Positions 10,834 to 59,789 are shown, numbered from the stretch's first letter. The stretch is 64,000 nucleotides of DNA from an uncultured Candidatus Saccharibacteria bacterium (GCA_964632215.1 CAZWBG010000001.1:495863-559862); one strand, 5' to 3'. Notes: generated by a model not told the origin, from the letters alone. Made by a program: numbers and translations.

Positions 10834-10854
10834 AATACTCTGTTACTTTCCGGT

Positions 10855-11250: not shown

Positions 11251-11358
11251 ATTGCCCACCCTCCTTTGAGTGAAGTGTTTACTTTATGGTGAGCTAGCTA
11301 ACAAGCCAGCTCAATCCTGGTGGTAATTATTGCTTATGCTTATACCTCTTGTCAAGCA

Positions 11359-23374: not shown

Positions 23375-24907
23375 TCATCCCGATGGTCGAGATCCGCCAG
23401 ACTTGTCTCGTAATCTCACGATGAAGTTTTTGATATCGTTGCGATATTCATATAGCCCATAGCCCACGGCCATCAACGTCACGACAATAATGATCCAGAA
23501 ATTGAGCCTCACCGGATTGATAGCAGCTGGCTGTGAGAGTGTACCGGTGGCAGTCCCCGAACCTGCACCGGTTGCTTTTCGACAGCGATTGGTTGCAGGG
23601 TTGCGTTCGTAGCCAGGCTGGCAAGGTGTCGGACTCGATGAAGTCGCGGCTACTTTACGGCATCTGTTAGTTTCCGTGTTTCTCTCTTCTCCAACTCCAC
23701 AAGGCGCAAGTACTGAAACAGCACCTGCAATCTTGCGACAACGATTCGTCTCGGAATTACGCTCTTCCCCTGGATCACAAGCAGCCAGTGTGGCCTCGGC
23801 AGTTTCTAAATTCTTACATCGATTCGTTTCAGGGTTCCGATATTTGCCTTCTGGGCAAGCCGCAGATTCAGCCTCACTCACTACCGCCTCTAGTTCAGGA
23901 AGTATTAGTTGATTTTCAGCACCAGGCGTGGCGCTTAGTGTGAGTTGCCAGACACCTTGTAGCGACATCCACGCCGTATCATCAGCAAGATGAGCCGGAT
24001 ACTGTACTACTTGTTTGGTTGTCGGTGTAATAAATTCTACGGTTCCATCCGCACTATTGGGTAATGTTAAACCATAAAATGCCTGATAACCTGGTTGTAT
24101 GTAGCCTTGCAATATTTTTTGAGCAGAACCAACCCTTAGCACGCAATCAGTAAGGTCTATGGGTTGTGAGGTAGTATTGTGCAGCTCTATAAATTCTGTA
24201 CCCGCATCACTACCAGCAGGATTAGGTACGATCTCGCTAATTTCAATACCCTGACATTGGGCCACGGGCAAAGAGATAAGTGTACAGTCTCCACCCGCCG
24301 TTATTTCATAGCCAGCCGGGAGATCTTCTTGCAAACCAGAAAGATTCAGACAACTATCAAGTAGGCTCACTTGAAAATCATTGAGATTATGACCCGTGTC
24401 TACGAGCTGATCCTGAGTAGTTGTCTTCCTTGTCAAAAACTGCGTGCTTAATGGAACAGGTGCCGGTTTGCCCTTGAAACAAGGTGAATTACTCTGAGTA
24501 GATCCCCATCCAACCAAATCGTGTACAAGACTATCTTGTCTCAACCGCAGAGATCCGCCAACATTATCGTTTAGACTCACTGCAAACTGTGCTTCACTCT
24601 TGGCTGACAGCTGACCACTCAAGCCCACTTCGCTTGTTGCTGAGGAATTATCGCTGACCTTCCAACTCGGCACGTTACAGTCGGGAAGATGTGCGCTTGG
24701 TTTGGCATATTCCAATACCCAACCCGTCAGATCTAGCGGCTCGTGAGTCGTGTTATATAGTTTCACGTATTCTGTAAGCTCACCCGAAACAGCACCGCCC
24801 AGTTTGATTTCATTTATCAAAACAGTCGAAGCTACAGCCTGGGCGGGAAGCGATACTGCTACAAAAGAAATGGAAAAGAATACAACAGCCAAGATAAATC
24901 GCTTCAT
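23375..24907 (-). CDS. Secreted protein with two lamin-tail domains and four Cys-bracketed repeats, C-terminal TM helix
   Basis: Signal peptide. LTD-type segments VLINEIKLGG...EYVKLYNTTHEPLDLTGWVL and ISEIVPNPAGSDAGTEFIELHNTTSQPIDLTDCVL. Four repeats of the form C-x2-G-x-[YE]-R-N-x-[EA]-T-N-R-C-[KR]-[KN]. TM helix FWIIIVVTLMAVGYGLY. Confidence 0.75.
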   Translation of the reverse strand: MKRFILAVVFFSISFVAVSLPAQAVASTVLINEIKLGGAVSGELTEYVKLYNTTHEPLDLTGWVLEYAKPSAHLPDCNVPSWKVSDNSSATSEVGLSGQLSAKSEAQFAVSLNDNVGGSLRLRQDSLVHDLVGWGSTQSNSPCFKGKPAPVPLSTQFLTRKTTTQDQLVDTGHNLNDFQVSLLDSCLNLSGLQEDLPAGYEITAGGDCTLISLPVAQCQGIEISEIVPNPAGSDAGTEFIELHNTTSQPIDLTDCVLRVGSAQKILQGYIQPGYQAFYGLTLPNSADGTVEFITPTTKQVVQYPAHLADDTAWMSLQGVWQLTLSATPGAENQLILPELEAVVSEAESAACPEGKYRNPETNRCKNLETAEATLAACDPGEERNSETNRCRKIAGAVSVLAPCGVGEERNTETNRCRKVAATSSSPTPCQPGYERNPATNRCRKATGAGSGTATGTLSQPAAINPVRLNFWIIIVVTLMAVGYGLYEYRNDIKNFIVRLRDKSGGSRPSG

Positions 24908-29680: not shown

Positions 29681-30181
29681 TTACAGCTCAAATTCTACCC
29701 TATCACCAATCTTGATGGTATATTTCTGGGCGTAGCCAGCATTGGTCTCAAGTACATACTGTGCAGGCATTTTAGGGACAAATGTTTTCGGGTATGAGGC
29801 GGGCTGAACATTTGATTCAATATGTACAATTTCTTTTTCGGAGTTTAGCCACATAATATCCAATGGAATTCTAGTGTCTTTCATCCAGAAAGCGTAGCTA
29901 CCAGGCATGTCGTAGACAAAGAGCATACCAGCGTTTTCCGGTAAGCTGTCACGGCAACATAGGCCTCGTTCTTTTTCTTGCGATGATGTCGCAATTTGTA
30001 ATTCTAACGCTTGATCATGAATAGTAGCAGTGGGTATAATTTTTTGCGATCTTGTCGCAAAAAATAAGAGAAGTACCAAAATAATGCATAAAACTATGCC
30101 TATACTACCTAAAGTAGCCGTTTTACGCACCCACTTTGTCTTTTTTATTACTCCGCTTTGCGTTGATCTCGATATAGTCAA
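29681..30181 (-). CDS. DUF192 family protein with N-terminal membrane anchor
   Basis: ENAGMLFVY...FWMKDTRIPLDIMWL...VLETNAG segments typical of DUF192. The track start 30181 is a TTG. An alternative GTG at 30130 would overlap the rimK stop by 8 nt. Confidence 0.7.
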   Translation of the reverse strand: MTISRSTQSGVIKKTKWVRKTATLGSIGIVLCIILVLLLFFATRSQKIIPTATIHDQALELQIATSSQEKERGLCCRDSLPENAGMLFVYDMPGSYAFWMKDTRIPLDIMWLNSEKEIVHIESNVQPASYPKTFVPKMPAQYVLETNAGYAQKYTIKIGDRVEFEL

Positions 30182-31037
30182 TTATCTTGGCTGCGACGTT
30201 CCGCCCCGTTACCTTCTCGATACCACCAAGTCCGGGACTTGAGTTAACCTCTAGCACCAAAGGGCCTCTGCTTGATCGCATCATATCTACACCACAGATT
30301 GGGAGTCCCATAGATTTGGCGGCTTTAAGGGCAGTCTTCTTTTCTTCATCAGTTAGTTTTATCGATGCCCCTTCACCACCCTGGTGTAGGTTGCTACGAA
30401 AGTCATCGTCAAGGCTTTGTCGTTTCATACTAGCAACGACTCGACCACCCACTACGAAGGCCCTAATGTCTTCACCAGCAGATTCCTCAATAAATTCTTG
30501 CAGAAGGATGTTGGTCCCATCCTCATTATGCAGATAGAAGGCTTGCAGCACAGATTTTGCAGCTTTTTTGGTTTCCGCGAGTACCACGCCATTTCCGTGT
30601 GTACCACGTGCAAGCTTAATGATTACTGGAGTACCACCAACCTGCTCCAAGAGATCTTCGATATCGGTAGTATTACGTGAGAAAACTGTCTTAGGTATCC
30701 CCACTCCAGCCTTAGAAAGAAGCTGCAAAGAACGCAGCTTATCACGCGAACGAACAATCGCAATGGAGGTTGCGGTGGTATAAACTCCCTGCATTTCAAA
30801 TTGGCGCACAATAGCCGTACCATACCGTGTCATACTACTACCGATACGTGGAATAATTGCATCTACATTTTGTAGATCTTCGCCCCTGTAACTGACCGTC
30901 GGATTACTCCGTTCTATAGAGGCGTAGCACTCTCTATGTTTTACTACTCGAACCGAATGTCCGCGAAGCTTGGCCTCCTCTTTCAGCCTCTTAGTTGTAT
31001 AGTTTCCGGGTCCGTTTGAAAGAATAATGACATTCAT
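30123..31037 (-). CDS. rimK: Ribosomal protein S6 glutamate ligase RimK (ATP-grasp)
   Basis: Alignable by eye with E. coli RimK along its length: IPRIGSSMTRYGTAIVRQFEMQG, SRDKLRSLQLL, DFRSNLHQGG, GVDMMRSSRGPLVLEVNSSPGLGGIE. Confidence 0.9.
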   Translation of the reverse strand: MNVIILSNGPGNYTTKRLKEEAKLRGHSVRVVKHRECYASIERSNPTVSYRGEDLQNVDAIIPRIGSSMTRYGTAIVRQFEMQGVYTTATSIAIVRSRDKLRSLQLLSKAGVGIPKTVFSRNTTDIEDLLEQVGGTPVIIKLARGTHGNGVVLAETKKAAKSVLQAFYLHNEDGTNILLQEFIEESAGEDIRAFVVGGRVVASMKRQSLDDDFRSNLHQGGEGASIKLTDEEKKTALKAAKSMGLPICGVDMMRSSRGPLVLEVNSSPGLGGIEKVTGRNVAAKIIDYIEINAKRSNKKDKVGA

Positions 31038-31537
31038 GACTCGTCCGCCCTATCCTCTTCGTCATCTGGCATCTCGATACCGTATTGTTTCTTAAGCTCA
31101 ATTCTATTTATACTGGTTTCGTTTGTATCCACAAAAAATCTGCCGTTCAAAAGTTTTCTACCAATTAAAATTGGGTATATCTTCTTAGATCGGTCCGCAA
31201 GAGTAAAGGATGCTCTGAAAACTCGAGGGCCCAGCTTTACCCTTAGCCAGACCTCATATCTATCTTCACGGTGCCCAAATGAGTTTGCTACTCCGACCTG
31301 TTTAAATGTATCTGCAATAATGGTCTGAGAAAGCGCTCCGCAGACGGGGTGACCACCTAATAAGTCGAATTTAAGCTTGGCTCCATCATCAATAAGTACA
31401 ATATTCTCAGCATGGATAGCCGAGCGATACGCACCAGTATCGGTCTTAGCGGGAATACCGCTAATATCAAAGTCTAAGAAGTGCAGTACTTCTGCACGTC
31501 CAATAATTACTTTGTGAAAATCTTTTTTCGTTGCCAT
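31034..31537 (-). CDS. RimB-type retropepsin-like / putative ATP-dependent zinc protease family protein
   Basis: 167 aa. GRAEVLHFLDF...IPAKTDTGAYRSAIHA is typical of the family that commonly precedes rimK. ATGA overlap with rimK. Confidence 0.7.
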   Translation of the reverse strand: MATKKDFHKVIIGRAEVLHFLDFDISGIPAKTDTGAYRSAIHAENIVLIDDGAKLKFDLLGGHPVCGALSQTIIADTFKQVGVANSFGHREDRYEVWLRVKLGPRVFRASFTLADRSKKIYPILIGRKLLNGRFFVDTNETSINRIELKKQYGIEMPDDEEDRADES

Positions 31538-31647
31538 AAGTGAGTTACCTATTGTTAGTATATACTGCTAATGTATATTGGTCATTAATAATCGACTAGT
31601 CATTTAATACTTGAAATATTCTAACATAAGTAGTAAAATAAGTCAAT

Positions 31648-32889
31648 ATGAAAAAGCGTATACTAATTGTTGGTCAAAAGATATCTATCCTGGTGAATTA
31701 TCTGGAAGAGAACGGTTATGACTATATCGTCCTAAAAGACGTAAAGCGCACCAAGTTTCCTGATCGTCAGTTCAAGCGTCGCGTGCTATGCGATTTCTCG
31801 AGTCGCGATAAAGTCCTTGCCACTATTGATGAGATCAAGAAACCTATCCATGGAATAATAGCCACTTACGAAACCTACATTTTACCCGCCGCCTGGATTG
31901 CAGAGCATCTTCAGCTGCCGAGTATTCCAGTCAAAAGCGCCGAGGCCTGTACGGATAAGTTCATCATGCGAAGCTTATTCGCCAAAGCACCAGAGAAGAT
32001 TAGTCCAGATTTTATGGTAATTAACTCAGAGCAAGATGTTCGTAGCTTTGCCCAAAATCACGAGTTTCCATTAATTATTAAGCCCGCCAATCTCTCTAAA
32101 AGTCTCTTGGTCACAAAAAATCATGACCTTAATGAACTACTCGAGAACTACCGTAAAACCATGAATGTCATTAATGATGTCTACCTAAAGTATGCGCCCG
32201 ACCGTAAACCAAAACTACTTATTGAAGAGTTTATGGAAGGAACCATTCACTCGGTTGATGCTTTTGTCGACAAAGACGGTACCCCTCAGGTATTAAACCA
32301 GGTTGTTGATTATCAAACTGGGTACGATATTGGATACGATGACAACTTCCACTACAGTCGAGTACTCCCTTCTCAGCTGTCCAACGACGATCAAGAGGCA
32401 CTACGCCACTGCGCAGAAGTAGGTATTCGTGCCCTCGGAATGAAGAGTTCGCCAGCACACGTAGAAATTATTATGACAAAAGATGGCCCTCGACTTGTTG
32501 AGATTGGTGCTCGTAACGGTGGCTACCGTGAAAGAATGCACAAACTAGCGAACGGGATTGATATTACTGGGGCCGCACTTGCGCTTGTAGTAGGGTCCAA
32601 GCCAAACATTACTGCCACAAAAAATGAATCGTGTGCAGTGCTGGAGTTATTCCCACGAAGAAAAGGTGCTTTTAACGGTATCGCTAATGAATCTGTACTA
32701 AAAAATCTGGAGTCCCTTGAGCGCTATAGTATTAAAGTGAAACATGGCGAGACAGTTGGTAAATCAAGTGATGGATATAAGACACCGCTCGTTATTATCT
32801 TACACGCTTCGAACTCTGATATTCTCACACGTGACCTCTTTATAATTCAGGATAAAATTAGAGTCCTTACCAACGTAGACCCACAGTAA
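31648..32889 (+). CDS. ATP-grasp enzyme, L-amino-acid-ligase / carboxylate-amine ligase-like
   Basis: 413 aa. Rossmann-like pre-ATP-grasp N-terminus, FPLIIKPANLSKS, LLIEEFMEG, HVEIIMTKDGPRLVEIGARNGG. Confidence 0.75.
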   Translation: MKKRILIVGQKISILVNYLEENGYDYIVLKDVKRTKFPDRQFKRRVLCDFSSRDKVLATIDEIKKPIHGIIATYETYILPAAWIAEHLQLPSIPVKSAEACTDKFIMRSLFAKAPEKISPDFMVINSEQDVRSFAQNHEFPLIIKPANLSKSLLVTKNHDLNELLENYRKTMNVINDVYLKYAPDRKPKLLIEEFMEGTIHSVDAFVDKDGTPQVLNQVVDYQTGYDIGYDDNFHYSRVLPSQLSNDDQEALRHCAEVGIRALGMKSSPAHVEIIMTKDGPRLVEIGARNGGYRERMHKLANGIDITGAALALVVGSKPNITATKNESCAVLELFPRRKGAFNGIANESVLKNLESLERYSIKVKHGETVGKSSDGYKTPLVIILHASNSDILTRDLFIIQDKIRVLTNVDPQ

Positions 32890-32890
32890 G

Positions 32891-33910
32891 TTACGGCAGC
32901 AGGGTCGCAAGATACTCGACATACTTCTGAGTTACATTACGTGATTTACCACTGGTTGGTTTATCATGTATGGCCAGTGACGGGCACTTATTTAACTCCA
33001 CTATCACCGGTTGTAGATCATCAACAGTAGCATCTTTGGTGGGCCGTGTGCGCATCATGAAGTCAACACCGCATACTGGAAGTCCAATAGCCCGTGAAGC
33101 AGAAGTAGCCATATCGCGCATCCACTGAGGTGTATCATCCGTAATGTCAATAATCTCACCCCCGGCACCATAGTTGGCGATACCCAATACAAATACTTCT
33201 TCATCTCTTTCTGGGATTTTTGATACATCATCGCCCAAATACGTCGCAGCTGCTTCGGAATTAATGTACGCCAGTGCAGCACGATACGGCTCACCTCTGT
33301 TTCCAGAATTATTCTCTATTTCTATGAGTTCAGTAATACTATGCACACCATCTCCTGTAACTCGCGCAGGTACACGGTGAATCGCACCAGCAAATTCGTA
33401 ATTAATAGTGGCTATTCGTATATCTAGAATCTCTGGGTAATCATACTGTTTCTGAATAACTGCTGCCCGAATATTTTTAGCATTATCCATCGCAATATTA
33501 AGTGCAGCATCAAGAGCATTACTCTCGGTGATTCCGACGGTGATTCCCTTGCCATGCCCGCCATCAAGTGGTTTCACCACAACCTTCTCTGACGCCTGTA
33601 GAAATTTCTTGACTCGCGGATCATCCTTTTCCTTATCTTTTACGAGTATAGTTGGAAGTTGCTTAATACCGTTTGATTCAAGAAGGCAATGTGTGGCATA
33701 TTTATTATTTGCAATATGCCCTGCCGCGTAACTACTCGTTGGAGGCGTAGTACTAAAGATATGTATTGTTCGGTCACCCTTGGTTATGAATATGTTTGGA
33801 CAGCCAACATAGGGCACCTCCGCCTTCCAGTTGTGGCGTTTTATCTCGTCCTGAATAAGTTGCTGTCCCGTATTCAAACTAGCTGTATCAATACTTAAAA
33901 AATCTACCAT
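32891..33910 (-). CDS. ATP-grasp ligase resembling the cyanophycin-synthetase G domain / GshAB C-terminal domain
   Basis: 339 aa. VVVKPLDGGHGKGITVGI, HRVPARVTGDGVHSITELIEIENNSGNRGEPY, GVDFMM...VIVELNKCPSL. Confidence 0.7.
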   Translation of the reverse strand: MVDFLSIDTASLNTGQQLIQDEIKRHNWKAEVPYVGCPNIFITKGDRTIHIFSTTPPTSSYAAGHIANNKYATHCLLESNGIKQLPTILVKDKEKDDPRVKKFLQASEKVVVKPLDGGHGKGITVGITESNALDAALNIAMDNAKNIRAAVIQKQYDYPEILDIRIATINYEFAGAIHRVPARVTGDGVHSITELIEIENNSGNRGEPYRAALAYINSEAAATYLGDDVSKIPERDEEVFVLGIANYGAGGEIIDITDDTPQWMRDMATSASRAIGLPVCGVDFMMRTRPTKDATVDDLQPVIVELNKCPSLAIHDKPTSGKSRNVTQKYVEYLATLLP

Positions 33911-33927
33911 ATACTCAACGTCCCTTC

Positions 33928-34746
33928 TTATTCATTACATAATTCTTCGATAACTCTAGCTGCTACATTAAATCCAACAAGCTCACTGATTCCAAAACCT
34001 GGAGATGGATTAACTTCAAGTACAAGCGGACCTTTGTTACTGTCTATAATATCTACTCCTGAAAAGTCGAGATTTAAGCTTCTATTAGCAGCTACTGCGA
34101 TTCTTTTCTCTTCTTCCGTAGGCTTGTGTGCAATTGCTGCACCACCTTGGTGAAGGTTGGCCCTAAAATCTCCGGAGTCAGCCGTACGTTTCATCGCTGC
34201 TATAATCTTATCACCTGCTACAATAACCCTTTTATCCGAGCCTTGTGATTCTTCTATATATTCCTGGCTAAGAAGTTTCGGGCTAACAGCAAATAACTCT
34301 TCTGCTTTTTTAGCAAACTCCTCCTTGTTTTTAATTAGTTCAACTCCAATGCCCCTATTACCATGTGGAACCTTAAGTACGAGAGGAAATGAAAGTGTTT
34401 CTACGGGCGTAAGACACGTAATAATGCTCGATTTAGGTGTCGGCACATCATGAGATATGAGTATTTCATATGTTTTGATCTTATCAAATCCAGTAAGTAC
34501 TGACTGAAGTTGCTTCAACTTTTGACCCTTCAGATTCTTGGCAAGCTCTATATATAAGGTGTAGCTTTTTGGCCCAAGACGATATATTACTTTATTCGCA
34601 AGCTCTATATCCTCTAAAATTGTATCACTCGTAATCAACGCCAGCTTTGATGTACAACCGAGCCCATCGGCAGCCTGCAACAATGCATTTGCTCCAGGAC
34701 TTGTACGAGATAATGTTGTAATGCAGAGGGTATTTTTGTTTGACAT
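33928..34746 (-). CDS. RimK-family ATP-grasp ligase paralogue
   Basis: 272 aa. FPLVLKVPHGNRGIGV, DFRANLHQGGAA, GVDIIDSNKGPLVLEVNPSPGFG. The next ATP-grasp gene follows 17 nt downstream. Confidence 0.8.
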   Translation of the reverse strand: MSNKNTLCITTLSRTSPGANALLQAADGLGCTSKLALITSDTILEDIELANKVIYRLGPKSYTLYIELAKNLKGQKLKQLQSVLTGFDKIKTYEILISHDVPTPKSSIITCLTPVETLSFPLVLKVPHGNRGIGVELIKNKEEFAKKAEELFAVSPKLLSQEYIEESQGSDKRVIVAGDKIIAAMKRTADSGDFRANLHQGGAAIAHKPTEEEKRIAVAANRSLNLDFSGVDIIDSNKGPLVLEVNPSPGFGISELVGFNVAARVIEELCNE

Positions 34747-34936: not shown

Positions 34937-35290
34937 ATGGCTGAGGAGAAGAAAACAACACCAAAGGTAAAGGTGCCTGCGGTTAATGCAAAAGATGTTG
35001 AAGAGAATAAAATATACGGCATCCTAGCCTATATTGGTATTCTTTTCATCGTGCCATTACTTGCTGCACCAAAATCACCATTTGCAAAGTTCCATGCCAA
35101 CCAAGGCTGCGTGTTATTTATTGCTGGTGTGGCACTTGCGGTTATATCTTGGATTCCAATTTTGGGTTGGCTCATTGGCTTCATTGGTTGGATCGTCGTT
35201 GTCGTACTAGCTATTATGGGTATCGTTAACGCTGCTGGTGGCAAGATGGAAAAATTACCACTTATCGGTGATATCGAAATTATTAAATAG
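34937..35290 (+). CDS. DUF4870-like small membrane protein
   Basis: AGGAGG lies 5 nt upstream of ATG 34937. Contains NKIYGILAYIGILFIVPLL...FHANQG and three TM helices. Confidence 0.6.
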   Translation: MAEEKKTTPKVKVPAVNAKDVEENKIYGILAYIGILFIVPLLAAPKSPFAKFHANQGCVLFIAGVALAVISWIPILGWLIGFIGWIVVVVLAIMGIVNAAGGKMEKLPLIGDIEIIK

Positions 35291-35346
35291 TCTCAATTGA
35301 CCTGATATAAAATACCCTGATATACATTGGGGTAATTTTATTAGCT

Positions 35347-36456
35347 CTAGTGAAAGATACCCTTCTTCTTGCTGGTCTTAAGCTCTTGGAGTAAATCTTT
35401 TTGCTGCTTACTTAAGTTAGTTGGGGTATCGACCAGTATGGTAACAATATGCGCGCCGCGGCTACTCTCGCGCAAGCGTGGTACACCGTGACCAGAAAGT
35501 TTAAAATCTGTACCACTCTGAGTTCCTGCTGGGACCTTCATCTTCACGGGGCCATCTACCGTTTGAACCTCTATCTCGGCGCCCAGCGATGCATCAATCA
35601 TACTTACATGTTCCGAGGAGAGAATAAGATCACCTTCTCGCGTGAAGTGCTTGTGCGGCTTCACATTCAGCTGCACATACAGATCACCCTTATTCCCGTT
35701 AGCTGCGGCCTCACCATGCTCGCGGAGGCGGATCACCGCTCCGTCATCAATTCCGGCTGGAATTTTAATAGTAATCTCCTGCTTGACCCGCTCTACTCCA
35801 GTTGCCTTACAAACACTACATGGTTTCTCGGGTATTTCACCGCGGCCGTGACAGTTACGACAAACTGCGGCTTGCTGAATAGTACCAAACACGGTGTTCA
35901 TCTGTTGAACGACCTGGCCCGAACCTTTACAGACGTCGCAGGTCTTTAGCCCATATCCGGGCTCTGCTCGGCTACCCTTACAGTGCGTACAAACATCATT
36001 CATTTGCAAGTGAATAGTTTTCTCAACACCAAATACTGCCTCTTCAAAACTTAACATAACCTCAGTTTGAACATCCCGACCCATATCTTCGCCACGGGGT
36101 TGTTGTGGGCCACCACCACCAAAAAAGCTACCAAAAATATCTCCGAGGCCCATATCGCCAAAGTCGAAATGCATGTTTTGACCCTGGCCACCAAAGCCCT
36201 GGAAACCTTCAAATGGATTACCCCCAGGTGCGCCATCTCCACCTACGCCAGCATGACCAAACTGGTCATACCTTTGGCGCTTGGTTGCATCTTTTAGGAC
36301 TTCGTAGGCTTCATTTGCTTCTTTAAATTTGGCTTCATCGCCGCCCTCTTTATCTGGATGGTGCTTAACGGCAAGCTTACGAAAAGCCTTCTTGATCTCA
36401 TCTGCTGAGGCTTCTTTTTTAATACCTAAAATTTCATAATAATCACGTTTTGCCAT
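35347..36456 (-). CDS. dnaJ: Co-chaperone DnaJ
   Basis: J domain with HPD (KHHPDKE), a Gly/Phe-rich region, and four Cys-x2-Cys zinc-finger motifs. Confidence 0.95.
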   Translation of the reverse strand: MAKRDYYEILGIKKEASADEIKKAFRKLAVKHHPDKEGGDEAKFKEANEAYEVLKDATKRQRYDQFGHAGVGGDGAPGGNPFEGFQGFGGQGQNMHFDFGDMGLGDIFGSFFGGGGPQQPRGEDMGRDVQTEVMLSFEEAVFGVEKTIHLQMNDVCTHCKGSRAEPGYGLKTCDVCKGSGQVVQQMNTVFGTIQQAAVCRNCHGRGEIPEKPCSVCKATGVERVKQEITIKIPAGIDDGAVIRLREHGEAAANGNKGDLYVQLNVKPHKHFTREGDLILSSEHVSMIDASLGAEIEVQTVDGPVKMKVPAGTQSGTDFKLSGHGVPRLRESSRGAHIVTILVDTPTNLSKQQKDLLQELKTSKKKGIFH

Positions 36457-36460
36457 TAAT

Positions 36461-37066
36461 TTATCCTATCAAGCTATAAAAATATTCAGAGAAACGGGTT
36501 AGTACGAGGGTGATAACAATTAAGTAGGTTATGGCGATGAACTTGCCCGAGTTATTAGCAAATACGCTCCCAAGAGCACCTCTTAGTTTAATGTGTCCTT
36601 GCCGAATGTTCCAAGCCAACGTTGTCCAGAATATTGGAATAGTGACGGTCCAGACGGCTATACAGTACAGGCAAAGCTTACCAATATCGTACAAGCTTTG
36701 AGAGATCAGCCAAGCGCAGAACAAGAAACCGAATGCGGTACCAGCTTGAAATGTTAGCCAATACCAACGTTTTGGAATCCTGACACCAGCTAGGAGTGTC
36801 ATACCAACAACCAATACACAGGCGAAGCCAAAGATACCAATGAGTGGATTAGGAACACCGAAGAATACCTTGCCCTGCCACGAGCCAATAACTGGCGAAC
36901 AGGCCACTACTGGGCTAATTGAGCAGCTCGGGACGTAGTCTGGATTGGCTGCAATATGTATCTTCTCTATAGTTAAGATAGTGGATGCTAATACGCCGAT
37001 AACCGCACCGATTACCAAAACCCAGGGAAACACTTTTTCAAACGATAGTTTTTTTAGTATATGCAT
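36461..37066 (-). CDS. Vitamin K epoxide reductase (VKOR) family membrane protein
   Basis: 201 aa with 4-5 TM helices, a loop Cys pair (CSISPVVAC) and a CLYC active-site motif in a TM helix. Confidence 0.8.
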   Translation of the reverse strand: MHILKKLSFEKVFPWVLVIGAVIGVLASTILTIEKIHIAANPDYVPSCSISPVVACSPVIGSWQGKVFFGVPNPLIGIFGFACVLVVGMTLLAGVRIPKRWYWLTFQAGTAFGFLFCAWLISQSLYDIGKLCLYCIAVWTVTIPIFWTTLAWNIRQGHIKLRGALGSVFANNSGKFIAITYLIVITLVLTRFSEYFYSLIG

Positions 37067-37169
37067 GGCTTCATTATACGTTAAGTTGATCTCGATTGTA
37101 CGATCTCATGGAGAGCATACCTATCAAGCCAGCCAGAATCTCAACTGGCTTGATAGATCTAAGGTTGTT

Positions 37170-39092
37170 TTACTTTTCTTTCTTTTCTTCTTCAACAACT
37201 TCGCCTTCTACAGCTTCGTCTTCCTTTGCCGCGTCATCCTTCTTCTCGTCACCCTTAGCAGCCTCTTCGGCCTTGGCAGCTTCTTCATACATCTTGGCAC
37301 CAATTGGCTGAATTTTATCCATCAGCTCTTTAGTAGCTTTTTCAATCTCGTCTTTATCAGCTGAAGCCTGGTGCTTTTTAGCTTCTTCTACGGCTTCAGT
37401 GATGATCTTTTTGTCATCGTCTGAGATCTTATCTTTATACTCATCGGGCATCTTCTCAGCCTGGTAGATGGCATTCTCAAGTAAATTCTTAGACTCAGCT
37501 GCTTCGCGCTTCTTTTTGTCATCCTCAGCATGAGTCTCAGCTTCTTTTTGTGCCTTTTCTACGTCTTCTTTACTCAAGTTTCCAGAATTCTGAATAGTAA
37601 TAGACTGCTCTTTGCCCGTGCCTTTGTCTTTTGCCGCTACATTTAAGATACCGTTGGCATCAAGGTTAAAGGTTACTTCAATTTGTGGCACACCACGTGG
37701 CGCTGGAGCAATACCATCTAGAATAAAACGTCCGAGTGACTTGTTGTCGTTTGCCATCTCACGCTCACCTTGTAGTACGTGAATCTCAACCTGCGGCTGA
37801 CTATCGGCAGCAGTTGAGAAGGTCTCAGACTTACTGGTTGGAATAGTCGTGTTACGCTCAATCAGTTTGGTTGTCACGCTACCCATAGTTTCGATACCAA
37901 GAGAAAGCGGGGTCACATCAAGCAGTAGTACGTCTTTGACATCTCCAGCTAGTACACCACCCTGAATTGCAGCACCTACAGCGACTACTTCGTCAGGATT
38001 TACACCCTTAAGTGGATCTTTGCCAAAGATTGATTTTACCTTAGCTACTACCGCGGGCATGCGAGTCATACCACCAACCAAGATAACTTCGTCGATATCT
38101 TTTGGTGTAAGCTTGGCATCTTTTAGGGCTTTTTCACAAGGCCCAGCAGTTCGTTCAATAAAGTCTTTAACCAAATCTTCAAGCTTGGCACGAGTCATAC
38201 TGTATTCAAAGTTAATCGGACCATCATCTCCTTGGTCAAGGAATGGTAGGTTGATTTCTGCAGTTTGCGCGCTAGAAAGTTCCTTCTTGGCTTTTTCAGC
38301 CTCTTCCTTGAGACGCTGCATAGCCATAGCGTTGCTACGCAGGTCTTTGCCGTGCTCTTTTTTAATTTCGTCGAGGAAGAAGTTAACAATCTTATTGTCG
38401 AAGTCTTCACCACCGAGGTGTGTATCGCCGTGTGTACTCTTTACTTCGAAGACACCATCACCAAGCTCGAGTACTGAAACGTCGAAGGTACCACCACCAA
38501 GGTCGAATACCACTACAGTTTCGTTCTTGTTCTTTTTATCAAGGCCGTAGGCAAGTGCTGCGGCAGTTGGCTCATTAATGATTCGCTTAACTTCAAGACC
38601 GGCAATTTTACCCGCATCCTTCGTTGCTTGACGCTGTGAATCGTCAAAGTAGGCAGGTACAGTTATGACTGCCTCAGACACTGGCTCACCCAAGAAGGCT
38701 TCAGCATCAGCTTTTAGCTTAGAAAGAATCATGGCTGAAACTTCTTCTGGCGTGTATTCCTTACCTGCCATCTTGACGGCCACGCCATTACCTTTTTCTA
38801 CAATTTGGTAGGGCATAATGTCGTGGTCTTTTTGGACTTCGTTATCTTTCCACTTACGGCCGATTAAACGTTTTACACCGAAGATGGTGTTTTCTGGGTT
38901 TGTAACTCGCTGACGGTTTGCAATTTGGCCAACCAAGCGCTCTTCTTTACCGTCTTTATCCTTTTTTACCGCGACAACTGAAGGTGTTGTTCTATTACCT
39001 TCGCTGTTGGTAATAATTTCAGGTGATCCTGCCTGCATAACAGCCATGGCTGAGTTGGTAGTTCCTAAATCAATTCCGATAATTTTACCCAT
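37170..39092 (-). CDS. dnaK: Chaperone DnaK (Hsp70)
   Basis: [17 protein letters not shown], full-length Hsp70 with an acidic Lys/Glu tail. Confidence 0.97.
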
Positions 39093-39164
39093 ACAATCTA
39101 CTCCTTTTGTGCCCCTAGACCATCTGATCTAGAGGTTATGCTTTTTTAAAAATATACAAGTTGC

Positions 39165-39191
39165 TTAGCAGTCGTTTATTTTGATTGCTAA
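39165..39191. promoter_or_regulatory. CIRCE-like HrcA operator (proximal to dnaK)
   Basis: TTAGCAGTC-N9-GATTGCTAA, compared with consensus TTAGCACTC-N9-GAGTGCTAA. Confidence 0.65.
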
Positions 39192-39200
39192 AGTAATTCT

Positions 39201-39230
39201 ATCATATATAAATTAGCAGTCGCAAGTCAA
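39201..39230 (-). promoter_or_regulatory. Putative sigma-70-type dnaK promoter
   Basis: On the minus strand, TTGACT (39230-39225) lies inside the distal CIRCE spacer, followed by an 18-nt spacer and TATGAT (39206-39201). Confidence 0.45.
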
Positions 39231-39239
39231 GAGTGCTAA
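39213..39239. promoter_or_regulatory. CIRCE HrcA operator (distal, overlaps the -35)
   Basis: TTAGCAGTC-N9-GAGTGCTAA, one mismatch to the consensus inverted repeat. Confidence 0.85.
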
Positions 39240-39256
39240 TTTACGCGATTCTAGTT

Positions 39257-39448
39257 TTATTGGGCAAGGCCCATACCGCTTGCTTTGGTGGTTTTAGTAG
39301 AATCTACTGGTAGTGGACGTCCTTGAATCGTATCTACAGGGTCCGCATGAGCACTCGTTGAGTCGGCTAAGACTAAGCCCAGAGCCTCTCCTTCGTCAGG
39401 ATAGTAATACGTCGGATCCTGAATTACTTGTGGTGTAGCTTCTGACAT
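39257..39448 (-). CDS. Small acidic hypothetical protein between grpE and dnaK
   Basis: 63 aa. AAGGGAG lies 6 nt upstream of the ATG. Composition is Pro/Asp/Thr-rich and looks disordered. Confidence 0.4.
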   Translation of the reverse strand: MSEATPQVIQDPTYYYPDEGEALGLVLADSTSAHADPVDTIQGRPLPVDSTKTTKASGMGLAQ

Positions 39449-39517
39449 AGTGGACTCCCTTAGTATGGCTCACTATACTACTGTTATAAAATTTAGTTGT
39501 GATATTCCACACACTAT

Positions 39518-39979
39518 TTATTGGTGCGTAACCTTGACGACTGCATGACGGATAACTTGATTGTTAATTTTGTATCCTTCTTGCAAGACTTCACTAACAA
39601 TCTGCTCTGGACCCTCGCCTTCTACTTGAACTGCTTCATGAAATTCTGGATTAAACGGCTGATTAAGAGCATCGATTTTCTCGATTCCTAACTTCGCCAA
39701 CTGCTGCAAAAGTCTGTCATGTATCTTTTGCACACCCTGCGCCCATTTGTTATCTTCTAGATCTTTTGGCAAATGGTTTAGTGCCCGTTCGAGATCATCG
39801 ATAACAGGCAGTAGATCTTTTACTACTTGAGCTTTCGAAAATTGCGAAAGTTGGGTCTTTTCTTCTTCAACTCGCTTTTTATAATTAATAAACTCTGCTT
39901 GCACACGCTGCAAATCACCCGTTAGTTCTCCAATTTGCTGTTCAAGCAGTACTTCATTTTTGGTTAACTTCTTACTCAT
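39518..39979 (-). CDS. grpE: Nucleotide exchange factor GrpE
   Basis: 153 aa with a coiled N-terminus, the FINYKKRVEEE motif, and a C-terminal beta domain (FNPEFHEAV). Confidence 0.9.
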   Translation of the reverse strand: MSKKLTKNEVLLEQQIGELTGDLQRVQAEFINYKKRVEEEKTQLSQFSKAQVVKDLLPVIDDLERALNHLPKDLEDNKWAQGVQKIHDRLLQQLAKLGIEKIDALNQPFNPEFHEAVQVEGEGPEQIVSEVLQEGYKINNQVIRHAVVKVTHQ

Positions 39980-40677
39980 AGTATTGCCTCCAAGGTTTCG
40001 CCAGCATGGGCTACTAAATTCATTACATTTTTATAACTCTGTCGGGTTGGTCCAAGTACCCCAATATAACTATGGTCAGAATAGGGTGAGCGGAAGCGAC
40101 TAATAATAAGAGCTGATTCACTTGTTTTACCAATAGGATTCTCGCGACCGATATAAACACTAAGTGGTTCATTTGGCGCTGCCTCGCGTAGCCAGGGCTC
40201 TAAATTATCTAGCAGTCGAGCAACACCTTGTGAATGGATCGGATCTAAAAATTCTGGTTGACCAAATAGATTTGAAAATCCCGCCACATAAAGCTGATTG
40301 CCAATAGTTGCAAGTCCCAGGTTATGGGTCAGTTGCACAAGCGAATCTACAGCACTCCTGATTGCCATAGCTGGCTCACCGGCGTGAGAGATGCGAGTTG
40401 TCATAGCTTTTGAACCACGTGAGATAAGCGGTAACTGCGTAGGCTGTTCATTAATATGATTAACATAGAAACGGTATCCCTTGTCTGTTGGTATACGGCC
40501 AGCGGAAGTGTGTGGCTGCTTGATGAAACCAAGTCGTTCAAGTTCTGCCATCTCATTACGGATTGTTGCACTTGAGACGCTAAAGAGCTTCGCAAGCGTA
40601 ACACTACCAACAGGTGATGCGACTTCGGCATACTCTTCAATCATAGCGGCTAGAATACTGATTTGACGGGTAGTCAT
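39976..40677 (-). CDS. hrcA: Heat-inducible repressor HrcA (short form)
   Basis: N-terminal winged helix (LTTRQ-like MTTRQISIL...SSATIRNEMAELERLGFIKQPHTSAGRIPTDKGYRFYV). At 233 aa it is clearly shorter than the roughly 340 aa I recall for B. subtilis HrcA. Confidence 0.85.
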   Translation of the reverse strand: MTTRQISILAAMIEEYAEVASPVGSVTLAKLFSVSSATIRNEMAELERLGFIKQPHTSAGRIPTDKGYRFYVNHINEQPTQLPLISRGSKAMTTRISHAGEPAMAIRSAVDSLVQLTHNLGLATIGNQLYVAGFSNLFGQPEFLDPIHSQGVARLLDNLEPWLREAAPNEPLSVYIGRENPIGKTSESALIISRFRSPYSDHSYIGVLGPTRQSYKNVMNLVAHAGETLEAIL

Positions 40678-40698
40678 AATGGTTTTTAGTATATAGTT

Positions 40699-40725
40699 TT
40701 AGCAGTTAACTAGCAAGAGTGCCAA
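40699..40725. promoter_or_regulatory. Degenerate CIRCE-like element upstream of hrcA
   Basis: TTAGCAGTT-N9-GAGTGCCAA, three mismatches to consensus. Confidence 0.5.
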
Positions 40726-40771
40726 CGCTGCTTGTTGCATAAAGGTGAGTTCGGTATACTAAAAGGCAGAC

Positions 40772-41392
40772 ATGAAAAAGCTCACATCTTCTGAAATGCT
40801 ACCGATCATTGGCGAATGGCTCGGTACGGGTAGTATCAATATTTTTGGTATACCTTTTTCTGGGAAAGACACACAGGGTGAACTTTTATCTGAATATCTG
40901 AGTGCCTCGGTGATCGGTAGCGGTGACATACTGCGCAGTAGTGTTTTATCTACCGAGGCCAAAGAAACAATGGATGCTGGTAACCTGCCCCCTTCCGAAG
41001 AATTTTTTAGAGTTGTCCTGCCCTATTTCAACAAACCTGAATATTCGCAGACTGCCCTTGTACTAAGCTCAGTTGGTCGCTGGAAGGGTGAAGAAACAAA
41101 GGTGATTCAAGCTGCACAAGAATCTGGCCACCCTATAAAAGCGGCCTTCCTACTTACCCTACCCGAGGAAGTAGCGTTTGAGCGTAAGGCAAAAGTTGAA
41201 CGTAACCGAAATGATGATGCTAGCACGCAGATTCTAGAAAAACGAATGGAAGAGTTTCGTACAAAAACACTGCCCGCCCTGCAGACCTATCGGCAACTTG
41301 GCTTACTTATTGAAGTAGATGGCAGTCAATCTCCAGAAGAAGTAAAACAAGAAATTATCACGCTTCTGTACCAACATGCGACTGGAGAGTGA
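40772..41392 (+). CDS. Adenylate kinase-family nucleoside monophosphate kinase (divergent P-loop)
   Basis: GIPFSGKDTQ (Adk has GxPGxGKGTQ), SGDILR, MDAGNL, and a C-terminal LIEVDGSQSPEEV segment that aligns by eye with Adk. Confidence 0.6.
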   Translation: MKKLTSSEMLPIIGEWLGTGSINIFGIPFSGKDTQGELLSEYLSASVIGSGDILRSSVLSTEAKETMDAGNLPPSEEFFRVVLPYFNKPEYSQTALVLSSVGRWKGEETKVIQAAQESGHPIKAAFLLTLPEEVAFERKAKVERNRNDDASTQILEKRMEEFRTKTLPALQTYRQLGLLIEVDGSQSPEEVKQEIITLLYQHATGE

Positions 41393-57946: not shown

Positions 57947-58813
57947 ATGATACTATTTCTAGCCAGCATTGATCTAGAACAAACAATTGCACAGCAATCT
58001 AAGACGGTTGTTTTGGTCGCAGCAGCACTACTTGCGCTGCTTGTTGTGCTTTCCGTAATCCTGCACAATCGGGCACCAAAACTTAACCCTTGGCTATTTG
58101 GAGCCATTAGCCTGACTATGATACTACCGACGCTCTTCTTGGTGGTGAGCACGGTGTATTTAAATGTAAAATCCGAATCTGGTGGCCCTATTCACTGGCA
58201 TGCAGATATTGAACTCTGGGCCTGTGATACCCAGCTCAACCTTCGAGATCCTAAAGGTGCTCTCAACAATAAAATTGGTACTCCAACACTGCACGAACAT
58301 AATGACAAACGTATACATCTTGAGGGCGTCGCGGTAGATATCTCTCGTGATGCTTCTGTTGGTAAATTTATGGAAGTAGTTGGTGGTGAAATTACTGACA
58401 AAAGCTTTACTATTCCTCTGAACGAAGCGGATATTGCAAGCCTGCCTGCTCAGATTGGCACGTTTGTAGAGACCGCTAGCTCTGGACCAAGTGCAACCTT
58501 TATAACTGGGCAAAACTGTGGTGACCAAACCGCCGAGGTGCAAATGTTTGCCTACCGCTTTGATCAAGCTACCAATACCTACTCTCAGCAAAAAGTAGAG
58601 CACCCTGCTCAGTGGGTCATTGCACCTGAAAGCCAAGTACCTCCTGGAGATTGTTTGATCGTTGAATTTGGTGCACCAAAAGAGCGTACTGATAGACTCT
58701 GCGCCCAGTACGGTGTACGAGATAAACACCGCTGCCAAGAGTTTGGCGTAAAACCCGACAAGCTTGATGTGTGTGACATTGAAGAAGTACCCCATGGAGG
58801 CAATGATGTTTGA
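57947..58813 (+). CDS. Membrane-anchored extracytoplasmic Cys/His-containing protein, unknown function
   Basis: 288 aa with two N-terminal TM helices. The exported domain has HWHADIELWAC and HEHNDKRIH segments and seven Cys. Its stop overlaps the start of the ccdA-like gene. Confidence 0.6.
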   Translation: MILFLASIDLEQTIAQQSKTVVLVAAALLALLVVLSVILHNRAPKLNPWLFGAISLTMILPTLFLVVSTVYLNVKSESGGPIHWHADIELWACDTQLNLRDPKGALNNKIGTPTLHEHNDKRIHLEGVAVDISRDASVGKFMEVVGGEITDKSFTIPLNEADIASLPAQIGTFVETASSGPSATFITGQNCGDQTAEVQMFAYRFDQATNTYSQQKVEHPAQWVIAPESQVPPGDCLIVEFGAPKERTDRLCAQYGVRDKHRCQEFGVKPDKLDVCDIEEVPHGGNDV

Positions 58814-59510
58814 TCTGCCTACACTCGCCCTAGTCATCGGCTCAGCCGCGATTGACTCTATTAACCCGTGTGCTATTGGTGTACTTATCTTGATGGTCTC
58901 GGTGGTTCTTGGTACTGGCAAATCACCCCGCCGACTCCTGCTACTTGGTGGTGCTTACATTTTCGCCATATTTGCAACCTACCTCATAGCTGGGCTTGGA
59001 CTCATTTACTTCTTTAGCGAAGTACCAATTGTAGTTGCCGAATACTTAAGTATCGCTGTGGCAATGCTCGTGATTCTCGCTGGAATTTTAGAAATTAAAG
59101 ACTACTTCTGGTACGGCAAAGGTCCAAGCCTGCACATACCAGCTAAGTTTGCTAAAAAGATCCAAGAGATGAGTGGTGGTGCAACCAGCGTTGTAAGTGT
59201 GATGCTGCTGGGTGTCTTCGTAGCCGCGGTAGAATTGCCGTGCACAGGTGCACCGTACTTAGCCATCATTACCATACTAAGAATTGATTTCAACTTCCAG
59301 GCCTTGATGCTCATGGTGCTCTACAACCTCATCTTTGTTCTACCACTGATTGTTATTCTCATCATGATCGCCGGTGGTGCCAAACTCAGCTCAGTCAAAT
59401 CTTGGAAGGAAGAAAAGAAGGGTACTATGCGCCTGATGGTCGGCGTCCTACTCGCAGCGCTTGGCTGGCTCCTCATATTAATTGCAAACGGTACCATTAA
59501 TTTTGGGTAA
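58803..59510 (+). CDS. CcdA/DsbD-family thiol-disulfide electron transporter
   Basis: Six TM helices with the two conserved membrane Cys motifs SINPCAIGVL and ELPCTGAPYL. The track start 58764 lies inside the upstream gene. Confidence 0.8.
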   Translation: MMFDLPTLALVIGSAAIDSINPCAIGVLILMVSVVLGTGKSPRRLLLLGGAYIFAIFATYLIAGLGLIYFFSEVPIVVAEYLSIAVAMLVILAGILEIKDYFWYGKGPSLHIPAKFAKKIQEMSGGATSVVSVMLLGVFVAAVELPCTGAPYLAIITILRIDFNFQALMLMVLYNLIFVLPLIVILIMIAGGAKLSSVKSWKEEKKGTMRLMVGVLLAALGWLLILIANGTINFG

Positions 59511-59512
59511 TC

Positions 59513-59782: not shown

Positions 59783-59789
59783 GGGGTAC

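Follow-up and report, generated by a model that had tools for sequence, protein, structure and literature searches.

The window, by which we mean the whole 64-kb stretch of Saccharibacteria DNA that was analysed, contains a chaperone locus in which a gene coding for a VKOR-family thiol oxidoreductase lies between dnaK and dnaJ. Open reading frames and profile matches give, all on the minus strand, the order hrcA, grpE, orf63, two CIRCE repeats with a promoter, dnaK, 103 nt, VKOR, 4 nt, dnaJ and a terminator (Table 1). This order from hrcA to dnaJ, and both spacer lengths exactly, had been described in an earlier note on this DNA. The small gene orf63 had no match in Pfam or NCBIfam and is barely conserved, with its best match in a relative (E=0.21) found at the same position. 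The terminator that follows dnaJ sits between this gene and a convergent DUF4870/MamF-like gene. Since the gap to the dnaJ ATG is only 4 nt, VKOR and dnaJ are necessarily co-transcribed here. An Rfam search of positions 35000-41000 (E<=1) gave no match, indicating that the spacers in this interval contain no known RNA thermometer or riboswitch.

Table 1. Features of the dnaK-VKOR-dnaJ locus and Cys-containing proteins of the window
Feature	Position	Strand	Basis or remark
CIRCE-like inverted repeat upstream of hrcA	40699..40725	.	3 mismatches
hrcA	39976..40677	-	ORF and Pfam/NCBIfam; heat-shock repressor binding CIRCE
grpE	39518..39979	-	ORF and Pfam/NCBIfam
orf63	39257..39448	-	Small ORF, no family match
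CIRCE 1	39213..39239	.	1 mismatch to TTAGCACTC-N9-GAGTGCTAA
dnaK promoter TTGACT-18-TATGAT	39201..39230	-	10/12 consensus matches
CIRCE 2	39165..39191	.	2 mismatches to TTAGCACTC-N9-GAGTGCTAA
dnaK (Hsp70)	37170..39092	-	ORF and Pfam/NCBIfam, DnaK equivalog
Stem-loop	37121..37156	-	14 bp (12 Watson-Crick, 2 G-U), 8-nt loop; 13 nt after dnaK stop
TATAAT -10 hexamer	37073..37078	-	6 nt before VKOR ATG; predicted promoter of a leaderless VKOR(-dnaJ) mRNA
VKOR-family thiol oxidoreductase, 201 aa	36461..37066	-	Pfam PF07884 and signature residues
AGGA Shine-Dalgarno of dnaJ	36464..36467	-	Within last VKOR codons
dnaJ	35347..36456	-	J domain, zinc-finger CXXCXGXG x4, C-terminal domain; DnaJ equivalog
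Bidirectional intrinsic terminator	35313..35334	.	TACCC...GGGTA, T runs on both strands
510-aa protein, 14 Cys	23375-24907		
Type IV pilin-like proteins, 2 Cys each	9723-11259		
471-aa protein, 8 Cys	8315-9730		

The two CIRCE repeats and the promoter that had been claimed ahead of dnaK are confirmed, the chance rate of CIRCE-like matches in shuffled sequence being 0.15 per window. The repeats bracket the promoter. Specifically, the 9-nt spacer of CIRCE 1 holds the -35 hexamer TTGACT, and CIRCE 2 lies downstream of the -10 hexamer and upstream of AAAGGAG, the Shine-Dalgarno sequence of dnaK. A third repeat, which the earlier note overlooked, is located upstream of hrcA; its spacer contains the -35 hexamer TTGCTA, and its position is occupied in all relatives. 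CIRCE is therefore found in the promoter regions of dnaK (two repeats) and hrcA (one repeat). None occurs anywhere between dnaK and dnaJ, so that dnaJ here lacks a CIRCE of its own, and the dnaK-VKOR spacer is free of CIRCE both in the window and in every relative. Two relatives (L091 and L093) have an extra CIRCE directly after VKOR, where it serves dnaJ or LysE-NYN-dnaJ.

The VKOR-family protein

The 201-residue protein matches PF07884 with an E value of 1.4e-38 (132.5 bits against a Pfam cutoff of 27.5), and this match runs from residue 15 to 149, or positions 1-133 of the 134 in the profile. It scores 31 bits against the NCBIfam VKOR equivalog NF011480, for which the cutoff is 120, and thus does not belong to that subfamily. 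The loop Cys pair (C48, C56) and the CLYC active site (C132-C135) that had been attributed to it are present. Together with S62 they align with C43, C51, S57, C132 and C135 of human VKORC1, the loop Cys pair, loop Ser and CXXC motif that make up the family signature (PMC4555120), and all five residues are invariant in an alignment of 20 Saccharibacteria homologues. Across the clade, purifying selection on the protein is clear.

Five transmembrane helices are predicted: hydropathy indicates transmembrane segments, and an AF2 model has helices at residues 9-40, 75-92, 99-128, 133-155 and 173-191. The predicted topology is that of the family, namely a four-helix bundle with the CXXC motif at the outer end of TM4, plus TM5. 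This model was built from the 20-sequence alignment, has a low confidence (pLDDT 61) and was used solely to confirm the fold class; in a Foldseek comparison with the PDB its best 14 matches are all VKOR structures. As judged by its sequence, the gene codes for a genuine and apparently catalytically competent VKOR.

Promoter, hairpin and gene order in relatives

The start of VKOR reads TATAAT-gaagcc-ATG, with no Shine-Dalgarno sequence between the hexamer and the ATG, and none was found before VKOR in any locus examined. All 13 distinct relatives have a hexamer of this kind (TAYAAT, TATAGT, TATACT or TAGAAT) 6-7 nt ahead of the VKOR start. The 6-7 nt that separate hexamer and start differ in each of these relatives, and the hexamer is retained where the dnaK-VKOR spacer is as short as 13 nt (L095) or exceeds 250 nt (L001, L011). 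When a leaderless-type gene is defined as one that lacks a Shine-Dalgarno sequence and has a -10 hexamer whose end is some 6-8 nt ahead of the start codon, VKOR is such a gene. The same holds for 12 of the 56 genes of the window (about 20%) versus 0.6 expected, and for 26 of 104 genes in relatives versus 1.3 expected, a 20-fold enrichment at gaps of 6-8 nt. Distant CPR VKORs in other genomic contexts also show this architecture. The conserved -10 box and missing Shine-Dalgarno sequence are the signature of a leaderless mRNA, with both promoter and start being predicted. A second candidate promoter, TTAACG-17-TATACT (37084-37056), was rejected as its -10 falls within the conserved N-terminal coding sequence.

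The dnaK-VKOR spacer also contains the stem-loop listed in Table 1, and the folding energy of this spacer is -30 kcal/mol (z = -2.7). Unlike the other terminators of this genome, which carry T runs, this hairpin has no U tract behind it, and it is a candidate for either a partial terminator or a 3'-end stabiliser of dnaK mRNA. In L095 and L092 there is little or no hairpin between dnaK and VKOR. Compact junctions in which a terminator is followed by a -10 hexamer are present elsewhere in the window. As to whether VKOR is isolated from its neighbours by signals of its own, a point raised against coupling in the earlier note, we find a predicted independent promoter on the dnaK side (its own -10, no CIRCE, and the hairpin) and no isolation on the dnaJ side.

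All 14 relatives examined have the order hrcA-grpE-(small ORF)-dnaK-...-VKOR-...-dnaJ, so that VKOR, far from being missing at this position in relatives, is present there throughout. The VKORs of these syntenic relatives are 56-73% identical, and the dnaK-linked VKORs group together as a single cluster in neighbour-joining trees. Among the loci recovered, more distant VKORs never adjoin dnaK or dnaJ. These results support the dnaK-VKOR-dnaJ order as a stable clade-specific marker in Saccharimonadales. The same interval also houses ACT-domain, LysE and NYN genes and small ORFs in relatives, and it is an insertion hot spot that tolerates cargo genes of unrelated function. The sole outgroup evidence comes from a Saccharibacteria-like contig (L041; FtsH 68% and P-type ATPase 63% identical to those of the window) where VKOR is located between tilS/ftsH and the ATPase gene, and the placement of this contig in the neighbour-joining tree is unstable. 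A recent transfer from Actinobacteria was rejected, as the dnaK-linked VKORs group with low-GC (CPR-like) and not high-GC sequences in neighbour-joining analysis.

With its own predicted promoter, VKOR looks like a long-standing insertion and not like a heat-shock-controlled part of the chaperone operon. The unrelated genes of the interval, and the re-supply of dnaJ with a CIRCE in L091 and L093, argue that VKOR is located here for historical reasons and not because a regulatory coupling was designed. Retention of the position across the whole clade could nevertheless reflect selection as well as inertia.

Transcription and function of VKOR at this locus

The explanation that we favor, and consider somewhat probable, is that a functional VKOR of ancestral placement forms an autonomous and mostly constitutive leaderless unit whose position reflects history and compaction. 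Gene identity, catalytic residues, synteny, and the anatomy and conservation of promoter, hairpin and CIRCE enter this explanation as direct observations. In this Saccharibacterium (CPR), VKOR would be a functional membrane thiol oxidase analogous to DsbB, and its gene would have arrived between dnaK and dnaJ in an ancestor of one Saccharimonadales clade and stayed there. It would be transcribed autonomously from the -10-only TATAAT located 6 nt before its ATG, giving a leaderless mRNA that, because of the 4-nt gap and dnaJ's own Shine-Dalgarno sequence, would carry dnaJ as well. The dnaK transcript would start at the promoter guarded by the double CIRCE and end at the strong hairpin that lacks a U tract, with some read-through into VKOR-dnaJ being possible. 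Poor translation is generally expected of an internal AUG that has no Shine-Dalgarno sequence. On read-through RNA the internal VKOR start would accordingly yield little protein and dnaJ would be translated, such that VKOR output would be mostly constitutive and its position a product of genome history and compaction. The transcription start, the effect of the hairpin, translation efficiency, the partner protein and the quinone source are what we infer in this scheme, and what speaks against it is that the promoter and leaderless start are predictions.

The earlier note had interpreted the locus as coupling extracytoplasmic disulfide formation to heat shock. In its fullest form, VKOR would belong to the HrcA/CIRCE regulon and be part of one heat-inducible dnaK-VKOR-dnaJ transcript, so that disulfide formation would rise together with cytoplasmic Hsp70. 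This is what one might expect of a gene flanked on the same strand by two genes of the HrcA regulon, in an arrangement that is kept throughout the clade, with a hairpin after dnaK that lacks the U tract of the genome's other terminators, a dnaJ that abuts VKOR and has no CIRCE of its own, and a relative (L095) in which the dnaK-VKOR gap is down to 13 nt and has no hairpin. However, the leaderless-type -10 before VKOR is conserved and a Shine-Dalgarno sequence is found in no locus, relatives hold unrelated cargo genes in the same interval, and more distant VKORs do not adjoin either chaperone gene. In addition, the new CIRCE that lies downstream of VKOR for dnaJ in L091 and L093 implies that transcription through VKOR gives inadequate HrcA control. 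We therefore regard full membership in the regulon as unlikely. What stands of the earlier interpretation is a bona fide VKOR embedded downstream of a CIRCE promoter, while the own -10 box and the lack of CIRCE weaken the coupling, leaving heat-shock control of VKOR weakly supported.

A partial coupling, in which read-through from the double-CIRCE promoter over the U-less hairpin would make VKOR heat/HrcA-inducible on top of its constitutive expression and would wire extracytoplasmic oxidative folding into the cytoplasmic Hsp70 regulon, seems to us more doubtful still. Read-through is itself plausible and could make VKOR RNA heat-inducible, because the hairpin has no T run and is weak or missing in L095 and L092. 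Moreover, since dnaJ has no CIRCE here, any heat induction of DnaJ would have to come from a transcript that runs through VKOR. If coupling of VKOR to heat shock is real, then envelope disulfide formation would be linked to the heat-shock response in ultra-small episymbionts that attach to their hosts by means of surface proteins. With read-through, folding of the pilins and adhesins that host attachment requires would come under the Hsp70 stress regulon, a cross-compartment proteostasis operon that would be undescribed.

The opposite possibility is that the hairpin terminates efficiently and that VKOR-dnaJ is a purely constitutive bicistron of the leaderless promoter, leaving DnaJ uncoupled from HrcA in this lineage. 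The strong stem-loop right after dnaK (-30 kcal/mol), the similar compact junctions of the window and the lack of CIRCE between dnaK and dnaJ fit with this, but the stem is not followed by a U tract, loss of DnaJ heat induction would be unusual, and L091 and L093 keep dnaJ under CIRCE; we consider it improbable.

Regarding function, by analogy with actinobacterial VKOR, C48/C56 would take electrons from an extracytoplasmic DsbA/MdbA-like oxidoreductase and pass them to the CLYC pair and from there to a quinone in the membrane, probably obtained by scavenging. Neither the 64-kb window nor any of the syntenic loci contains such a partner, that is, an ORF with a thioredoxin fold and CXXC motif. 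A motif scan of the window found CXXC only in PilB, DnaJ and VKOR, and Pfam searches of its Cys-rich or membrane candidates identified no DsbA/MdbA partner, with a 288-aa protein containing 6 Cys (57947-58813) having no Pfam match at all. A tblastn search with a DsbA-like query (L052) likewise gave nothing in the window or syntenic loci, whereas the same query matches VKOR neighbours in many high-GC loci. Both VKOR (fam000898) and an MdbA-like oxidoreductase (fam000318) are widespread in CPR bacteria (Meheust et al. 2019, PMC6744442), and the latter is reportedly encoded by most CPR genomes, as a rule away from VKOR (adjacency in 88 of 750 genomes; PMC6744442). The earlier note's statement that many Cys-containing surface proteins are encoded nearby holds in part: Cys-containing proteins do exist in the window (Table 1), but all are 11-28 kb from VKOR. 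A type IV pilus cluster whose pilins have Cys pairs is found in the window as well.

The 64-kb window showed no quinone-related genes, and Saccharibacteria are reported to be without quinone biosynthesis (PMC8407418, PMC6031116). The supply of quinone had been called an open question, but scavenging has already been proposed in these studies, and soil Saccharibacteria have quinone-using ubiquinol oxidases (PMC6031116, PMC8407418). The lack of quinone synthesis and of a nearby partner gene might instead suggest that this VKOR is not a quinone-dependent DsbA/MdbA re-oxidase but uses another acceptor, acts directly on substrates or is a relic, which is highly improbable given the invariance of the five signature residues under clear purifying selection, the MdbA-like enzymes that most CPR genomes encode away from VKOR, and the proposed quinone scavenging.

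Comparison with known systems

The closest known system is the VKOR/MdbA pair of CPR bacteria (PMC6744442), which involves the same family in the same phylum-level group and has the same proposed role, the re-oxidation of an MdbA-like enzyme responsible for folding exported proteins such as pilins. The oxidoreductase adjoins VKOR in 88 of 750 genomes there, whereas VKOR here is flanked by dnaK and dnaJ and has no partner in its vicinity.

Actinobacterial VKORs, such as those of M. tuberculosis (with DsbA) and Actinomyces oris (with MdbA), are likewise stand-alone proteins with no fused thioredoxin domain and, according to PMC11208910, PMC12421883 and PMC6744442, re-oxidise DsbA/MdbA with reduction of quinone. 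These and the window VKOR have about 200 aa, 4+1 transmembrane helices and the same four cysteines, and identity to VKORs of Streptomyces and other Actinomycetota is 41-48%. Two differences are evident. Many high-GC, presumably actinobacterial, loci have a DsbA-like gene directly upstream of VKOR, which the dnaK-linked clade lacks. Furthermore, Actinobacteria make their own menaquinone, which Saccharibacteria are reported not to do.

The best PDB matches by both sequence and structure are the Synechococcus VKOR-thioredoxin fusion (3KP9, 4NV2, 4NV5) and vertebrate VKORC1 (6WV3 etc.), which share fold and catalytic residues with the window VKOR at only 16-21% identity. The fusion has a Trx-like domain after TM5 that is missing here, and vertebrate VKORC1 does not support DsbA but reduces vitamin K epoxide for carboxylation. 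E. coli DsbB, also a four-helix membrane protein with two Cys pairs, is a functional analogue that re-oxidises DsbA and reduces quinone (PMC4555120, PMC11208910). It is of a different sequence family, and the window VKOR has no Pfam DsbB match.

Earlier publications already cover both the occurrence of VKOR in CPR bacteria and the scavenging of quinone by Saccharibacteria. Only the dnaK-VKOR-dnaJ gene order, for which we found no published description, is new, and it is of modest interest. The locus illustrates cleanly how, in compact CPR genomes, leaderless promoters made up of a -10 alone are embedded within adjacent genes or between them, which means that same-strand adjacency in such genomes does not imply co-regulation. 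For annotation and expression modelling of Saccharibacteria, the more useful lead may be how common leaderless promoters appear to be (about 20-25% of sampled genes).

Finally, the hrcA-grpE-dnaK-dnaJ-... operon of B. subtilis is reportedly (Homuth/Schumann) under CIRCE/HrcA control with internal promoters, and is said to have unrelated extra genes in or behind it, with internal promoters and stem-loops differentiating dnaK from the downstream genes. CIRCE/HrcA control and extra genes of unrelated function are thus common to both loci. However, the window has a CIRCE before hrcA and then twice more before dnaK, and while dnaK and dnaJ are adjacent in B. subtilis, here they are separated by a membrane redox enzyme.

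Gene order at the chaperone locus

The window has a GC content of ~44% and comes from a Saccharibacterium (TM7, CPR). Among genome and metagenome sequences, its closest matches all bear the label Candidatus Saccharibacteria or Saccharimonadales, and three Logan assemblies (SRR16797976, SRR16797977 and SRR16797980) hold contigs identical to it. The gene order that the earlier note had described is borne out in the window, as are the spacers of 103 nt (dnaK-VKOR) and 4 nt (VKOR-dnaJ) and the promoter with two CIRCE repeats before dnaK.

Features of the chaperone locus and other features discussed (L numbers, loci of relatives with their own coordinates)
Feature	Position	Strand	Basis or remark
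CIRCE-like inverted repeat 3, upstream of hrcA	40699-40725		missed by the earlier note
hrcA	40677-39976	-	ORF call; Pfam/NCBIfam
grpE	39979-39518	-	ORF call; Pfam/NCBIfam
orf63, 63 codons	39448-39257	-	ORF call
CIRCE-like inverted repeat 1, before dnaK	39213-39239		1 mismatch
CIRCE-like inverted repeat 2, before dnaK	39165-39191		2 mismatches
dnaK	39092-37170	-	ORF call; Pfam/NCBIfam
Stem-loop, 14 bp	37156-37121		13 nt past dnaK stop
VKOR -10 hexamer, TATAAT	37078-37073		exactly 6 nt before ATG
VKOR, 201 codons	37066-36461	-	ORF call; PF07884
dnaJ	36456-35347	-	ORF call; Pfam/NCBIfam
Canonical bidirectional terminator	35313-35334		T runs; after dnaJ
ATP-grasp/RimK block	30123-34746		adjoins dnaJ
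510-aa secreted protein, 14 Cys	23375-24907	-	candidate substrate
Four-gene cluster	57947-61175	+	possible redox module
Extra CIRCE, L091	8608-8634		near-perfect
Extra CIRCE, L093	6599-6625		near-perfect
Interval cargo, L001	6794-7396
Interval cargo, L002	2149-3568
Interval cargo, L003	6725-7327
Interval cargo, L093	5580-7976
VKOR, L041	5941-6594		43-50% identical

A synteny survey anchored on VKOR covered 14 relatives with enough flanking sequence, namely L001-L004, L010, L011, L053, L090-L095 and one JGI contig (the latter without DNA). All relatives with a VKOR of 55% identity or more have the order hrcA-grpE-(small ORF)-dnaK-...-VKOR-...-dnaJ, and the position of VKOR noticed earlier is kept in all 14. 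Neighbour-joining trees place the dnaK-linked VKORs in one cluster within the low-GC sequences, apart from the high-GC (actinobacterial) group. None of ~70 more distant VKOR loci (at most 48% identity) has dnaK or dnaJ as a neighbour, and at many high-GC loci a DsbA-like gene lies directly upstream of VKOR. The synteny among close relatives together with its absence at distant loci indicates that the dnaK-VKOR-dnaJ arrangement is real and conserved yet limited to one clade. Our literature search returned no mention of VKOR between dnaK and dnaJ, and this gene order, undescribed as far as that search goes, is probably incidental.

The interval holds VKOR alone in the window, L010, L090, L091, L092 and L095, a small ORF with VKOR in L001 and L094, VKOR with an NYN-domain gene in L001 and L003, VKOR with LysE and NYN in L002, and an ACT-domain gene with VKOR, LysE and NYN in L093. 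These cargo genes (an NYN-domain protein, a LysE-type exporter, an ACT-domain protein and ORFs of 77-85 aa) have no evident tie to chaperones or among themselves, so the interval looks like a tolerated insertion site. The stop of the NYN-domain gene overlaps the dnaJ start.

Several other features of the region were observed. No family matches the small orf63, which lies between grpE and the dnaK promoter and is hardly conserved in sequence. Unrelated small ORFs of 49-90 aa occupy its position in relatives, and it may therefore not be a real gene. Rfam returned no family match in the region. Five ATP-grasp/RimK-type ligase genes and a RimB-like protease adjoin dnaJ, and every relative has such a block, variable in composition, next to its chaperone locus. 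On L041, a more distant Saccharibacteria-like contig, VKOR sits between tilS/ftsH and a P-type ATPase gene (FtsH 68% and P-type ATPase 63% identical to those of the window), a site corresponding to 52-55 kb of the window, where there are only small membrane-protein genes.

Promoter signals and regulation of VKOR

The dnaK promoter (TTGACT-18-TATGAT) is flanked by two CIRCE, with its -35 hexamer inside the spacer of the first; shuffled windows yield 0.15 such matches. The third repeat, which is kept in all relatives, carries a -35 hexamer (TTGCTA) within the spacer, and TATACT stands 10 nt upstream of the hrcA ATG. From this combination we infer that HrcA is autoregulated from its own promoter, distinct from that of dnaK.

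VKOR has no CIRCE before it in the window or in any relative's locus. Its start is instead preceded by a -10 hexamer without a Shine-Dalgarno sequence, in contrast to dnaK (AAAGGAG) and dnaJ (AGGA). All 13 distinct relatives likewise lack a Shine-Dalgarno sequence at VKOR and carry TATAAT, TACAAT, TATAGT, TATACT or TAGAAT 6-7 nt before the start, the nucleotides in between differing in each. This holds for dnaK-VKOR spacers as short as 13 nt, in L095 with the hexamer directly against the dnaK stop codon, and for spacers of up to >300 nt. A -10 hexamer at this short distance from the start codon is a hallmark of leaderless mRNAs. The geometry is not peculiar to VKOR: a strong hexamer ending 6-8 nt before ATG precedes 12 of 56 window genes (0.6 expected) and 26 of 104 genes across the loci of nine relatives (1.3 expected), and VKOR genes of distant low-GC contigs have it in quite different contexts. 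Leaderless-type promoters thus appear pervasive in this genome, a subject on which the literature search found nothing for Saccharibacteria. Example starts are 5127, 5606, 8216, 16209, 21425, 23278, 27202, 28633, 37066 and 52025 (minus strand), the hexamers often lying within tiny intergenic gaps or overlapping the upstream gene's stop codon.

The dnaK-VKOR spacer folds at -30 kcal/mol (z = -2.7). Hairpins of other sequence occur at the same place in L002, L003, L004, L010, L011 and L090; the hairpin is weak in L092 and absent in L095. None, in the window or relatives, is followed by a U tract such as the other window terminators have. The efficiency of the window hairpin as a terminator is uncertain.

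On the simplest reading, VKOR would form a leaderless transcription unit of its own, probably constitutive, that settled between dnaK and dnaJ in the clade's ancestor. Here its transcript would also carry dnaJ, which follows after only 4 nt and has a Shine-Dalgarno sequence. The earlier note had placed disulfide formation under heat-shock control. Read-through from the CIRCE promoter could extend into VKOR, and may be how dnaJ becomes heat-induced; however, the internal VKOR start on such RNA, lacking a Shine-Dalgarno sequence, would be expected to be translated poorly, so this control is possible but not favoured, and we consider it unlikely. HrcA-dependent co-induction of VKOR through read-through, the most novel of the readings, is also given a low probability. 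The earlier interpretation is partly supported: the identity, position and conservation of VKOR stand, whereas its regulatory coupling is judged unlikely given its own -10 box and its lack of both a Shine-Dalgarno sequence and CIRCE. In L091 and L093 an extra CIRCE immediately downstream of VKOR fronts dnaJ and LysE-NYN-dnaJ, respectively, which suggests that this subclade regained or retained HrcA control of dnaJ separate from the dnaK promoter.

Redox pathway, substrates and VKOR architecture

VKOR and its likely pairing with MdbA-like oxidoreductases in CPR bacteria, with a link to pilin folding, have been published (PMC6744442), and in oral Saccharibacteria VKOR has been listed among the core genes, though as one that evolves fast (PMC9040727). 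The quinone supply, earlier posed as open, has already been discussed: Saccharibacteria are reported to lack quinone biosynthesis despite having quinone-dependent enzymes, and scavenging is the proposed answer (PMC6031116, PMC8407418).

A DsbA/MdbA-like partner gene, which the earlier note had proposed seeking, is found neither within the 64-kb window nor in the relatives' flanks. Cys-containing surface proteins are indeed encoded in the window, but not next to VKOR. Likely disulfide substrates include type IV pilin-like proteins with Cys pairs, an 8-Cys protein within the pilus cluster and the 510-aa protein (two lamin-tail domains, C-terminal transmembrane anchor), a plausible major substrate.

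The four-gene cluster may be a reducing-pathway module, although the organism is not known to produce c-type cytochromes. It encodes a 288-aa membrane protein (6 Cys, no Pfam match), a 7-TM protein resembling CcdA/DsbD (motifs NPC and LPC; a weak match to SfLAP), a small ATP-cone protein and a pyridine-nucleotide disulfide oxidoreductase.

The 201-aa protein matches PF07884 over the whole domain (132.5 bits, E=1.4e-38). In human numbering the family-defining residues are Cys43, Cys51, Ser57, Cys132 and Cys135 (PMC4555120); their equivalents, C48, C56, S62, C132 and C135 by HMMER alignment to human VKORC1 structures, are invariant among 20 aligned Saccharibacteria homologues (56-72% identical), which upholds the identity and active-site cysteines first noticed. 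Hydropathy and an AlphaFold model, poor at pLDDT 61, give four transmembrane helices and a fifth C-terminal one, and the model's best 14 PDB matches are all VKOR structures. By analogy with actinobacterial VKOR, the enzyme would return a DsbA/MdbA-like protein to its oxidised form, with a quinone as electron acceptor, the mechanism described in PMC6744442, PMC11208910 and PMC12421883. A fused thioredoxin domain is absent from the window VKOR, which gives it the same stand-alone architecture as the actinobacterial type.
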